Assembly (NCBI GenBank): GCA_963514005.1
Contig: OY740795.1
Coordinates: forward strand, 27,590,001-27,654,000
From: Raja brachyura
Taxonomy: Eukaryota
Reading direction: 5' to 3'
DNA length: 64,000 nt
Below are positions 49,801-57,871 of this stretch, piece after piece. Under the pieces are notes generated by a model. It had not been told where the DNA came from. It searched no databases and saw nothing but the letters and a program-made list of their open reading frames with translations. Position 1 is the stretch's first letter; each line of letters starts with the position of its first letter. The translations under genes and the position numbers were made by a program.

Positions 49801-50556
49801 TTTCATTTCAGCAATTAAACGGAAATGTCACCACACTCGTATTAAACATTTGCTGTACTGGGTGCGTTCTAGGGCAGCCTGAAATGTCACATATAGTAAT
49901 TATAAAAGTTGATCGTTACTCTATATTCTGAGAAAAAGGTGATTGCAACAAAATGGAGAATTGGTTAATCGATATACAGGGACATTTTGTGCACAATCGG
50001 GCATCAATGTATTATCTTGCAATAAATGATGTACCCTTTATCCTTTATCTGAGCTCTGCGGATGGGTTTGTTTATATTCATGTATGGTCTTTTCTTTGAC
50101 TGGATAGCCAGCAAACAAAAGCTTTTCACTCTACCTTGGTGCATGTAATGATAGTAAACTAAACTAGACTGATTTTTGAAAGATTCTTGATTAGTACGGG
50201 TGTCAGGGGCTATGTGGAGAAGGCGGGAGAATGGGGTTGAGAGGGAAAGATAGATCAGCCATGATTGAATGGTGGAGTAGACTTGATGGGCCAAATGGCC
50301 TAATTCTGTTCCTAGAACATATGAACTAAACTTGTGCTACTTTTTGCAGCTCCGTGTGACTATTTGACTTGCTGTCACCATTGTTTACTGATGGAACAAA
50401 CAGCAGTGGACATTGGGTGACAGATGCTAAGGTCCCTCTACTGAACACCCTCATAGCCTTTTAGACAATAGACAATAGGTGCAGGAGAAGGCCATTCAGC
50501 CCTTCGGCCCAGCAACACCATTCACTTTGATCATGGCTGATCATCCACAATCAGTA

Positions 50557-50712
50557 TCAAAGAAGGAACTGCAGATGCTGGAGAATCGAGGGTTACACAA
50601 AAAGCTGGAGAAGATGTCTGAAGAAGGGTCTCGACCCGAAACGTCGCCTATCTCCTTCGCTCCTTAGATGCTGCTGCACCCGCTGAGTTTCTCCAGCTTT
50701 TTGTGTAACCCC
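50557..50712. mobile_element. Young fold-back Penelope-like insert with intact hammerhead core
   Basis: Perfect 15-bp TSD CATCCACAATCAGTA (50542-50556, 50713-50727) in the CR1 3' UTR; core at 50618-50645. Confidence 0.9.
50618..50645 (+). ncRNA. Minimal type I hammerhead ribozyme core
   Basis: CUGAAGA-A-GGGU(CUCG)ACCC-GAAA-CG-UC; palindromic ACGU in place of helix III; helix I weak. Confidence 0.65.
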
Positions 50713-53700
50713 CATCCACAATCAGTACCCTGTTCCTGCCTTCTACCCATATCCCTTGACTTTGCTATCTTTAAGAGCTCTGTCTAACTCTCCCTTGAAA
50801 GCATCCAGAGAATTGGCCTCCAATGCCTTCTGATGCAGAGAATTCCACAGATTCACAACTCTCTGGGTGAAAAAGTTTTTCCTCATCTCCGTTCTAAATG
50901 ACCCCTTATTCTTAAACTGGGTCCTGGTTTTGGACTCCCCCATCAGTGGAAACATGTTTCCTGCCTCTAGCAATTCCTTAATAATCTTACATGTTTCAAT
51001 AAGATCTCCTCTCATCCTTCTAAATTCCAGTCGCTCCATTCGTTCAACATATGACAGTCCCGCCATCCCAGGAATTAACCTCGTGAACCTACGCTGCACT
51101 CCCTCAATGGCAAGAATGTCCTTCCACAAATTTGGAGACCAAAACTGCACACAATACTCCAGGTGTAGTCTCCCTAGGGCCATGTACAACTGTAGAAGGA
51201 CGTCTTTGCTCCACAACGCAACTCTTCTTGTGATGAAGGCCAACATGCCATTAGCTTTCTTCACTGCCTGCTGTACCTGCATGCTTACTTTCAGTGACTG
51301 AAGAACAAGGACACCCATATCACGTTGTACTTCCCTTTTTTTAACATGACACCATTCGGATAAAAATCTGCCTTCCTGTTCTTGTCACCCTGCATCCTCA
51401 CAGTTCACACTGCCACCCAGCTTTGTCTCATCTGCAAATTTGCTAACGTTACTCTTAATCCCTTCATCTAAATCATTAATGTATGTTGCAAATAGCTGCG
51501 GTCCCAGATCCGAGCCTTGCAGTACCCTACTAGTCACTGCCTGCCATTCTGAAAGGGACCCGTTGATCCCTACTCTTTGTTTCCTGTCTGCCAACCAACT
51601 TTCTATCCATGTCAGGACCTTATCCCCAATACCATGTGCTCTAATTTTTCGCACTAATCTCCTATGTGGGACCTTATCAACGGCTTTCTGAAAGTCAAGG
51701 TACACTACATCCGCTGGTTCTCCCTTGTCCATTTTCCTAGGTACATCCTCAAAAAATTCCAGAAGATTAGTCAAGCATGCTTTCCCCTTCGTAAATCCAT
51801 GCTGACTTGGACCGATCCTGTTACTGCTATCCAAATGTGCCACTATTCCATCTTTTATAATTGGCTCTGACATCTTCCCCACCACTGATGTCAGGCTAAC
51901 TGGTCTATAAGTCCCTGTTTTCTCTCTCCCTCCTTTCTTAAAAAGTGAGATAACATTATTTACCCTTCAATGCATAGGAACTGATCCTGAATCTATAGAA
52001 CATTGGGAAATGATCACTAATGCGTCCACAATTTCTAGAGCCACTTCCTTAAGTACCCTGTGATGCAGACCATCAGGCCCTGGGGAATTATCAGTCTTCA
52101 GTCCCATCAGTCTATCCAACACCATTTCCTGCCTAATGTGAATTTCCTTCAGTTCCTCCATCACCCGAGGTCCTCTGGCCACTAGTACATCAGGAAGATT
52201 GTTTGTGTCCTCCTTAGTGAGGACAGATCCAAAGTACCTGTTCAACACGTCTGCCATTTCCTTGTTCCCCATACTAAATTCACCTGTTTCTGTCTTCAAG
52301 GGACCCACATTTGTCTTAAATATTGTTTTCTCCTTCACATACCTAAAAAAGCTTTTACTATCCTCCTTTATATTCTTGGCTAGCTTACCTTCGTACCTCA
52401 TCTTTTCTCCCCGTATTGCCTTTTCAGTTATCTTCTGTTGTTCTTTAAATGTTTCCCAATCCTCTGGCTTCCCGTTCATCTTTGCTATGTTAACCTTCTC
52501 TTTTATTTTTATACTGTCCTTGTCTTCCCTTGTCAACCACGGTCACCTCTTACCCCTCTTAGAATCTTTCTTCCTCTTTGGAATGAACTGATCTTGCACC
52601 TTCTTCTGTATTATTCCCAGAAATACCCTCCATTATTGTTCCACTGTCATCCCTGCTGGGGTATCTTTCCAGTCAACTTTGGCCAGCTCCTCCCTCATGG
52701 CTCCATAGTCCCCTTTGCTCAACTGTAATACTGGCATTTTCGTTTTTCCGTTCACCCTCTCAAATTATAGATTAAAACATCAGATTATGGTCACTACCTC
52801 TTAATGGCTCCTTTATCCTGAGTCCCCTAAATCAAATCCAGTTCATTACACAACACTAAATCCAAAATTGCCTTCTTCCTGGTAAGCTGGAGTGCCTCCC
52901 GCTGCTCTAAGAATCCATCTCGGAGGCACTCCACAAACTCCCTTTCTTGTGGTCCAGTACCAACCTGATTTTCCCAGTCTACCTGCATGTTGAAATCTCC
53001 CATAACCACTGTAGTATTACCTTTGCGACATGCCGATTTTAACTCTTGATTCAACTTGCACCCTGTATCCAGGCTACTGTTTGGGGGCCTGTAGATAACT
53101 CCCATTAGGGTCTTTTTACCCGTACAATTCCCCAGTTCTATCCATACTGACTCCACATCTCCTGATTCTATGTCACCCTTCACAAGGGACTAAATTTCAT
53201 TCCTTACCAACAGAGTTACCCCACCCCCTTTGCCCACCTGTCTTTTCGATAGGAGGTATACCCCTGAATATTCAGTTCCCAGCCCTGGTCCTCTTGCAAC
53301 GATGTCTCTGTAATTCCCACAACATCATACTTGCCAATTTCTAACTGAGCCTAACCTTCTAACTTTGGTATTCACCTCCCCTCTCACACCGGTGACTATT
53401 GGCCCTAACCTTACTCTCTTATCCCCTCTCAAACATTCCTTCCCATTAATTTGGGAGTCTTTTGTAACTTTTCCTGAACTCACTTCCCCTTCATCGCCAT
53501 CTTTCTACTCCCAATTTCTCAACCCCCCCCCCCCCCCCCCCCGTTATTTAGTTTAAACCCACATGTATAGCACTAGCAAACCTGCCTGCCAGAACGTTGG
53601 TCCCCCTCCAGTTAAGGTGTAACCCGTCCCTTTTGTACAGATCACCCCTACCCCATAAGAGATCCCAGTGGTCTATAAATCTAAATCTCTGCTTCCTGCA

Positions 53701-55920: not shown

Positions 55921-56881
55921 TATGTATGGGCGCTGAGAATGTCAGAGGAGTTTTGCACATTTCTTGTTTTGAATATATTTTAATTCTGAATAAAGTTTAT
56001 TTTGGTTAAATAAAAATAATGTTTAAGAAGTTTGTGATGATTAGAGATATTGAAAGCTAAGTTAAACCAATCTCCACTGCCTACACATGATCCATATTCC
56101 TCGATTCCCTGCATATCCCTATCTAAAAGCCTCTACACCTAACTTGGCATGGTGTTCCAGGTACATACCACTCACTGTGTAGAAAGAAAATTGCTCTGCA
56201 CATGGATAAGACAGGTTTAGAGGGATTTGGGCCAAACACAGGCAAGTGGCACTAGGGTAGATGGGGCAAATTGGTTGACGTTGCAAGTTGGGCCGAAGGG
56301 TCTGTTTCCACGCTGCACGACTCTATGGCATCTCTTTTAAACTTTGTCCCTCTCACCATAAAGCTATGCCCTCGAGACTTTGATATTTCAACCCTGGGAA
56401 AAACTATTCTGAATGTCTACCCAATCCCTTGTAATTTTACAAACTGTACGTCTGTCAAGTTTATATACTGCTATCAGGATTTTCACTAATTTCCACCATT
56501 TATGGTCAGACACTGCACCAAATAGCCACTCCACTGCAATTGATACAAATAGGAAAGGTACGAGGGAAAAATCTGAAAATTGGTATTTGGCGCAACCTGA
56601 TGGGGAGATGTTCCGATCCATCAAGCAGATGCAATATCTTTCCATTGGCAGCCCATATTGGGGATGGAAGGTTACAAGCATAAAACCTGCCACCAGTAGC
56701 AATGGAGAACATAAATACCACAACAGAAAGGATTAGCAGGGTGTGTCCCAGCAACAGAGATCACCGAGATGATGTAACATTAGTGTTAAAGAAGGAACTG
56801 TAGATGCTGGAGAATCGAGGGTTACACAAAAAGCTGGAGAAACTCAGCGGGTGCAGCAGCATCTAAGGAGCGAAGGAGATA

Positions 56882-56949
56882 GGCGACGTTTCGGGTCGAG
56901 ACCCTTCTTCAGACTGGGGCGACGTTTCGGGTCGAGACCCTTCTTCAGA
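56882..56949 (-). ncRNA. Tandem pair of minimal hammerhead ribozyme cores
   Basis: Identical 32-mers GGCGACGTTTCGGGTCGAGACCCTTCTTCAGA at 56882-56913 and 56918-56949. Confidence 0.65.
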
Positions 56950-56954
56950 ACCCT

Positions 56955-56996
56955 AGGGTTAGGGTTAGGGTTAGGGTTAGGGTTAGGGTTAGGGTT
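56955..56996 (+). repeat. Interstitial telomeric repeat (AGGGTT)7
   Basis: Perfect vertebrate TTAGGG array, preceded by an inverted unit AACCCT. Confidence 0.97.
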
Positions 56997-57871
56997 TTTG
57001 ATGTAACATTAGCTTGTGGCAGATTCTTGGGTTTGTTCCTTTCAATCAATTATGCCATTATATGAACTAATTAGAAACAAAACATGCTGATGAAATCTCC
57101 AGAAATTTTGACCCACATTAATATATTATGAAGTACAGCCCAGATAATTGCTTGATGTATTGTTCCTGATAATGTTACAAATGAGAAGGTATAAAGAACC
57201 TTGAGATAGTCAAGGAACATTTAGAGGCTTTAGCGGTTGTAATGGAATCTGTCCTTGGGTTTGTTTAATTTGGGGCAATTCTCCCACCAAATGCCAATTG
57301 CAATGTTTCAATTAACTAACAAAACATTGCCTGTGATTTTTCAAGGATAGCCATCAAGATCAGTGTTTAACCTAAATTAAACAGAACAGTATAGTAGTGG
57401 GAAATGCAACAACCTGGGTTTGATTCTGACATTTGGTGCTGTATACTCTTCCTGGGATCCAGTTTCCTCCCATATTGCACAGATATATCCTACCAGTGTG
57501 TGTAGTTGGTAGGAGAATCAGGCCATTGTCAATGGGCTCGTGAAATAAGTGGGCGAATGAGTTTGATAAGACTGCTTTGTAAGCTAGCTAGACCTGATGG
57601 GCAAAATGGTGAAAAAAGAAGTGTTTTCCATACACCAACTGATGTAAAACTATAGGAATAATATAAAATACTGTATATCTTAATTTATAAAAGTAAAAAA
57701 AAACATTTCATTTATATCACCATTGAAAGAGTTGTTTACACATTCATACTTCTTCTTTGTGCTAGTCACTCGGCATAATAGTATCAGCACCTTCTGAACT
57801 ACCCCAAAAGTCTTTCTCAATTACTTCCATGTAATTTCAGAGGTAGCAGAATACAGTGATGCTACTATTAC

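Follow-up and report, generated by a model that had tools for sequence, protein, structure and literature searches.

Telomeric repeats at the truncated 5′ end of Penelope-like elements (PLEs) that lack an endonuclease (EN−) were reportedly described by Gladyshev and Arkhipova in 2007. EN− elements at chromosome ends are stated to have their truncated 5′ ends capped with telomeric repeats (PMC3846280). Solo pLTRs of endonuclease-bearing (EN+) PLEs capture foreign sequence within target site duplications (TSDs; PMC3846280). An optional pLTR tail of 30–40 bp has been described for PLEs, a Zn-finger-like motif within the linker joining reverse transcriptase (RT) to endonuclease is given for Neptune and Nematis, and the integration mode of PLEs is described as undefined (PMC8557442). 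The minimal hammerheads of these elements show low cleavage even as dimers (PMC4209133).

Interstitial repeats made by telomerase at breaks have been published for mammals (PMC2246262, Nergadze et al., 2007; PMC7215372, Santagostino et al., 2020; PMC5110952). Short interstitial telomeric sequences (ITS) at double-strand breaks are short, exact TTAGGG arrays with break ends in repeat register; about 5% are flanked by duplications, and at eight TERC-ITS loci of the mouse the nucleotides that precede the repeats are complementary to RNA beside the 3′ side of the template (PMC2246262, PMC7215372). Here we describe hybrids in a skate genome that link such repeats to PLE integration and that are dated and countable.

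Results

Anatomy and Age of the Insert

The window, i.e., the whole stretch of 64,000 nucleotides that was analyzed (G000:C15:27590001–27654000), belongs to a 2.7-Gb genome. Two perfectly matching copies of the 14-nt TSD TGATGTAACATTAG were observed at positions 56770–56783 and 56999–57012; allowing at most one mismatch, the window holds 2 matches to this sequence against 0.04 expected, and 0 of 100 shuffles reached 2. The TSD copies enclose 215 nt comprising a tail, a pLTR piece, two hammerhead-like cores, a palindrome, (AGGGTT)7 and TT. The 35-nt optional 3′ tail of the pLTR (56784–56818, minus strand) marks one of two starting points of sister copies, which begin either here or at 56819, and it is followed by the pLTR body of a young Penelope-like family encoding RT and GIY-YIG (56819–56917, minus strand), which stops 4 nt beyond the hammerhead core at a hot spot of the family. 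Tail and body together show 1 difference in 134 nt to a natural long copy, L189. The body contains a minimal hammerhead-like core of 32 nt (56882–56913, minus strand) that fits the description of the min-HHR in PMC4209133, with predicted cleavage between 56885 and 56884; a second, identical 32-nt core (56918–56949, minus strand) lies 36 nt from it. Read directly in the sequence are a 12-nt palindromic junction, AACCCT/AGGGTT (56949–56960), and the (AGGGTT)7 telomeric tract (56955–56996, plus strand), which is G-rich on the cDNA strand and the start of which is without letters of the telomerase RNA flank described below. A 2-nt TT filler (56997–56998) separates the tract from the right TSD copy. 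An earlier, sequence-only reading of this DNA had placed the TSD copies, the pLTR tail, both cores, the palindrome and the tract at 56770–57012. It had also assigned the ribozyme to the minus strand and taken the plus strand as cDNA, which agrees with the longer copies: their RT and GIY-YIG frame lies upstream on the strand corresponding to the window's minus strand, the sense strand of the element. Because this frame is on the hammerhead-bearing strand, the plus strand of the window is the cDNA strand, and first-strand synthesis would have started at the tail end at 56784. The window copy itself holds no open reading frame.

Contigs of four public runs (X18, X21, X1, and X16) were aligned to positions 56400–57400. 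In three other, related organisms (X18, X21, and X1), one contig each spans the site and displays a single TSD copy, no element and no repeats. The X18 and X21 contigs skip exactly 229 nt, corresponding to the insert plus one TSD copy (letters 433/434 of the X18 contig map to 56776/57006), and X1 skips about that length; flank identity to the window is about 99.5% for X18, 99% for X21 and 95% for X1. The X16 contig crosses the left junction and covers 17 nt of the insert, this run being possibly the assembly's own source and so not independent. The telomeric junction is consistent with the reads but is not displayed by them, the tract being skipped as a repeat in the contig alignment. Since the empty site in the relatives contains neither element nor repeats, the two arrived in one event, as the sequence-only reading had deduced from the shared TSD, and the insert is a real, young, single-event hybrid of a PLE and telomeric repeats. 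An orthologous empty site that lacks the tract, which is a criterion of telomerase-made short ITS, was thereby found at this locus.

The Penelope-like Family

A 47-mer taken from the insert gave 19,346 exact matches in the genome. The long copy L189 possesses a single frame of 573 aa (L189:478–2196, minus strand) with an RVT_1 match (E 3.6e-5) followed by a C-terminal GIY-YIG match (E 5.8e-4), neither of which reaches the curated cut-off in Pfam; a PDB search with the 573-aa frame gave 0 matches. A C-x4-C-x2-C motif is present in the RT-endonuclease linker of this frame, making the family a candidate for the Neptune clade. The family has two alternative element 3′ ends, 35 nt apart, inverted pLTR pairs (at L021, L031, L036, L047, and others), and TSDs that in sister copies are mostly 10–17 nt long. 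It hence displays the features of an EN+ PLE, namely RT followed by a C-terminal GIY-YIG, a pLTR with optional tail and inverted partners, and a TSD, and the insert in the window is a 5′-truncated copy of this young family. Many unselected copies show duplications of 11–17 nt, a short filler, a second pLTR in inverted orientation, or a stretch of foreign DNA. A second young family insert at 50542–50727 of the window consists of an inverted pLTR pair in a 15-nt duplication, with no telomeric repeats, and at L026/L027 (G000:C1:1207533–1207778) about 150 nt of foreign DNA lies between inverted pLTRs inside a 15-nt duplication. In 20 of 30 unselected copies (L020–L049) the end is found at most 6 nt 5′ of the hammerhead core and not at the cleavage site, which suggests that copy ends near the core reflect a defined RNA end or an RT stop.

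Hammerhead Core and Tandem Re-copying

An Rfam scan of the window identified no hammerhead and no other relevant family. The features on which the core was recognized are the conserved core itself, an extra base before a G-C-closed helix II, and a palindromic 15.2–16.2. Helix II is paired in 42–52 of 54 distinct cores, depending on the position, with few two-sided changes, and helix I of the parental core has about 2 bp. When the tandem RNA was constrained to fold as a dimer, the structure was 6.7 kcal/mol above the minimum free energy, and no special stability of the tandem RNA was detected (z 0.13).

The tandem-core pattern has 549 matches in the genome, some with three copies, in which the terminal 27–43 nt were re-copied. 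Tandem junctions were read at 60 loci (L050–L069 and L211–L250); they differ among loci, every one is attached to a pLTR, and, relative to the position where cleavage is predicted, the second copy restarts anywhere from 13 nt 3′ to 2 nt 5′. The most frequent restart was at −7 (15/60), with seven loci at −3 as in the window and another seven at the cleavage site. Ribozyme cleavage followed by a template jump was therefore rejected as the origin of the tandem cores, the mode being 7 nt off the site and only 7/60 restarting at it, and no trace of self-cleavage was found in the genome sequence of these 60 junctions. We infer a halt of the RT at the hammerhead, followed by re-priming on that end; the second core in the window is likely such a re-copy, with its restart 3 nt 3′ of the position where cleavage is predicted. 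The tandem hammerhead, for which the sequence-only reading had pointed to the dimer action of minimal PLE hammerheads, is probably a common and incidental by-product of re-copying and no sign of a dimer-active element.

Telomeric Tracts at Family Loci

Four pattern searches for a telomeric tract together with the young pLTR, with 0 matches in the reversed controls, resulted in 20 distinct young-family loci with a joined tract, located at the truncated end and amounting to about 0.1% of copies. The pLTR-telomere junction anticipated to recur by the sequence-only reading is hence not a single case. Three older-family loci with a telomeric tract also came from the pattern searches, and the older-family loci L006, L008, L009, L143, and L159 were left out of the 20. 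At 18 of the 20 loci (L004 and L081 being the exceptions) one TSD-like repeat surrounds element and tract; three of these 18 repeats contain a mismatch and were read by eye. Tracts reach up to 17 repeats. Variant repeats were seen at L007, L017, L019, and L092, the last of which also has a hairpin junction.

On the cDNA strand, among unambiguous loci with the tract against host DNA, 11 are C-rich and three G-rich (two-sided P 0.06). L007 is C-rich and then G-rich, and five further loci sit between inverted pLTRs. Searches with one anchor and a gap yielded 13 C-rich and six G-rich loci, three being common to both. The G-rich polarity at the cDNA 3′ end, expected by the sequence-only reading, thus turned out to be the minority. 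Mixed polarity does not reduce these loci to one-off repair, because both polarities fit telomerase acting on either break end. A search for G-rich repeats at distances of up to 14 nt from the short element 3′ end, this strand and this end being the ones covered, gave 0 matches, and the proposed analogy with Athena and Coprina does not extend to the 3′ end.

An independent sample comprised 38 isolated short telomeric arrays from contigs C1–C7, clustered and terminal matches being left out. The young pLTR is joined to three of the 38 against 0.02–0.05 expected, an enrichment of at least 60-fold; one further array is joined to an older pLTR pair (L143), and six represent one amplified composite repeat. 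The family is therefore an enriched but minor source of interstitial telomeric arrays: the suggestion that it seeds ITS holds in that this occurs, and its share is small.

Several other arrangements were encountered. The composite repeat (L101, L130, L131, L136, L140, and L144) has (CCCTAA)4–6 beside an inverted pLTR pair of old age and occurs on several contigs; in this case an ITS is apparently being spread by a different mobile element. At L141, G-rich and then C-rich runs in a fusion-like arrangement lie at a distance of about 60 nt from a pLTR insert that is independent and has a duplication of its own. An 18-mer containing the palindromic junction of the window has 15 matches, 14 of them elsewhere, on C13 and C1540. 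The junction was considered as a recurrent type of ITS and rejected, as the five outside matches that were read are one unrelated repeat; L196–L210 (C13 and C1540) show a repeated unit with the same palindrome, followed by degenerate telomeric repeats.

Telomerase RNA Flank Letters

The telomerase RNA gene was identified as a single copy at C14:14467878–14468354 (L157; 157.9 bits). Its template is CUAACCCUAAU with the 3′ flank GCACGG (longer reading CUAACCCUAAU-GCACGGUG), and the C-strand of many tracts ends in CCCTAA-TGC(ACGG). Among the 20 family loci, G-strand starts match the flank over 8 nt at L007, 6 at L070, 4 at L004, and 3 at L090; the other 16 have fewer than three flank letters. At L070, five flank letters between tract and duplication are not host DNA; the start of the G-strand was therefore on the target overhang opposite, and RNA 3′ of the template was copied. 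The flank letters at L004 run straight on from the cDNA end. The idea that all tracts are C-strand copied from TERRA was dropped as the sole mechanism after the telomerase RNA flank had been found.

After five extra copies of the composite repeat and four degenerate arrays were dropped, 29 of the 38 sampled arrays remained, including the three joined to the element. Eight of these 29 carry at least three flank letters against 0.54 expected (P 4e-8), and four carry at least five against 0.03 expected. The sequence CCCTAACCCTAATGCA has 255 genome matches, of which some form clusters or lie close to the ends of contigs, against 0 in the reversed control. Flank letters mark many element-free short arrays, with up to nine letters at L179, and telomerase-type break repair therefore seems common in the germ line. 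At L170 and L121, telomeric arrays in duplications of 13 and 10 nt contain no element sequence; they are possibly nuclease cuts filled by telomerase alone. At L177, a C-rich tract with telomerase RNA flank is joined inside the element tail, on its 3′ side, possibly by a later break.

At the 10 C-rich loci whose tract directly adjoins the second TSD copy, the TSD starts in template register over 21 nt in total against 3.3–4.3 expected (P < 1e-5), which fits telomerase priming and also annealing of a copied tract. Read-through past the 5′ boundary of the template did not exceed 1 nt in any of 64 tracts, G-strand 3′ ends showed no clear peak at the template-boundary register, and a search for longer telomerase RNA pieces, which can miss short ones, found the gene only.

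Discussion

The best explanation of the insert in the window, to which we assign a probability of roughly 0.65, is that the integration break of a young EN+ PLE was patched by telomerase before closing. The GIY-YIG nuclease would make a staggered cut, presumably leaving 3′ overhangs of 10–17 nt; the element RT would prime on one overhang, copy the RNA 3′ end, and halt just past the hammerhead, at the window locus re-copying the last 32 nt once. The other overhang may prime a second cDNA, giving inverted pairs, join directly, or occasionally be extended by telomerase. Such an intermediate probably has two exposed 3′ ends, either of which telomerase can act upon in the germ line. Telomerase would extend one of the free 3′ ends in about 0.1% of copies: the target overhang opposite more frequently, giving a C-rich tract on the cDNA strand, and the cDNA end less frequently, giving a G-rich tract as in the window. 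End-joining and fill-in would then close the break and make the TSD. As repeats at several loci begin with the letters of telomerase's own RNA, telomerase likely sometimes patches a PLE break. The sequence-only reading had named telomerase, or a template jump onto C-strand telomeric RNA or DNA, as completing integration; involvement of telomerase is supported for the family by the flank letters at L004, L007, L070, and L090, a fingerprint that the window locus lacks. Telomerase involvement is well supported for the locus class; for the insert in the window we only infer the origin of the tract, be it telomerase or copied or captured telomeric RNA or DNA, because the tract is without the flank fingerprint. 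The simplest reading there would be that a seed came from a brief ACCCT stutter or a snap-back and that telomerase then acted on the cDNA end.

An unlikely but serious alternative is that G-rich telomeric nucleic acid, either TERRA or a fragment of a telomere, was the source from which the tract was copied or captured. The element RT or a repair polymerase would make C-strand from one break end and the ends would anneal; in the window, priming would be from the right-hand overhang, and the palindrome would represent a snap-back. TERRA-templated insertion has been proposed (PMC7215372), the family does take up foreign fillers between its pLTRs, as in the 150-nt example given above, and the C-rich majority on the cDNA strand speaks for this route. 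At the window locus the missing flank letters, the palindromic start and the end in ...GGGTT plus TT are equally well accounted for if C-strand was made from the right-hand end with a G-rich template. Telomerase alone is insufficient for L007, with its C-run, G-run and variant repeat; the variant repeats and the divergent or hairpin junctions of L007 and L092 suggest that copying or capture contributes, and variant repeats at L017 and L019 point the same way. Such a route cannot, however, yield the telomerase RNA letters at the four loci that carry them, and it leaves the excess of these letters in element-free arrays unexplained.

Very unlikely, in our view, is a jump of the element RT onto telomerase RNA with repeated copying of the template, akin to the re-copying of the hammerhead end. 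PLE RTs are sister to TERT (PMC8557442) and tandem re-copying is common, but element-free arrays bear the same flank signature, tracts are as long as 17 repeats, and neither read-through past the template boundary nor, within the limits of a search that can miss short pieces, any other telomerase RNA stretch was found. We give only a small chance to the wider proposition that the Penelope RT copies the telomerase RNA template iteratively and that, in addition, nuclease cuts are a main source of short ITS in the lineage, L121 and L170 included; if true, a transposon enzyme would today be adding repeats in a telomerase-like way. Two independent events, with a later break at the element junction, or an assembly artifact are the least probable readings of all. 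Telomerase-type insertions do occur in element-free DNA and in older copies (L159 and L177), and reads do not cover the telomeric junction directly. Against this, the perfect TSD encloses both parts, the site is very young and is empty in organisms whose flanks show about 99.5% identity, the geometry is common to 18 of 20 loci, the enrichment is at least 60-fold, and G-rich tracts at the short 3′ end number 0. Patching by telomerase remains the preferred reading, and owing to the distinctive telomerase RNA flank, telomerase-made and captured tracts are separable by sequence, so that telomerase versus TERRA is testable genome-wide. The hybrids are rare, at about 0.1% of copies, and imply no function.

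Among the titles, abstract openings and text passages covered, from a mainly open-access literature, we found no report of telomeric repeats co-inserted with an interstitial EN+ PLE inside a TSD; cases linked to retroelements could be listed in the supplementary locus tables of PMC2246262. The closest systems each share part of the picture. Mammalian ITS and TERC-ITS have the in-register ends, duplications and template-adjacent letters seen at several of the skate loci; no retrotransposon cause of the break is stated for them, and the co-insert there is random DNA or the TERC 3′ domain, whereas the skate loci hold retrotransposon cDNA inside the element's own TSD, at 20 loci and on either break end. 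Athena and Coprina likewise combine a Penelope-type RT, a hammerhead near the 3′ end and telomeric repeats on the truncated 5′ end (PMC3846280, PMC8557442). Unlike these EN− elements, the skate family encodes GIY-YIG, is interstitial with TSDs, and shows no G-rich priming at its short 3′ end, and its repeats end in a joined break rather than a telomere. With the EN+ PLEs Poseidon, Neptune, and Xena it has in common the RT with C-terminal GIY-YIG, the optional pLTR tail and the inverted, 5′-truncated partners (PMC8557442, PMC3846280), and with their min-HHR the extra base before helix II and the palindromic ACGU (PMC4209133); helix I has 4–5 bp in PLEs and 2 bp in a D. virilis variant, compared with about 2 bp in the skate family. 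Two consecutive pLTR-derived hammerhead motifs are also found in non-LTR retrozymes (bioRxiv 10.64898/2026.07.22.740005), from which the skate tandems differ in their 36-nt unit, in junctions that vary by locus, and in showing no sign of a unit-length family that spreads alone. Telomerase-made interstitial repeats were known before; their probable co-insertion with an endonuclease-bearing Penelope element, which joins two known processes, appears to be new.
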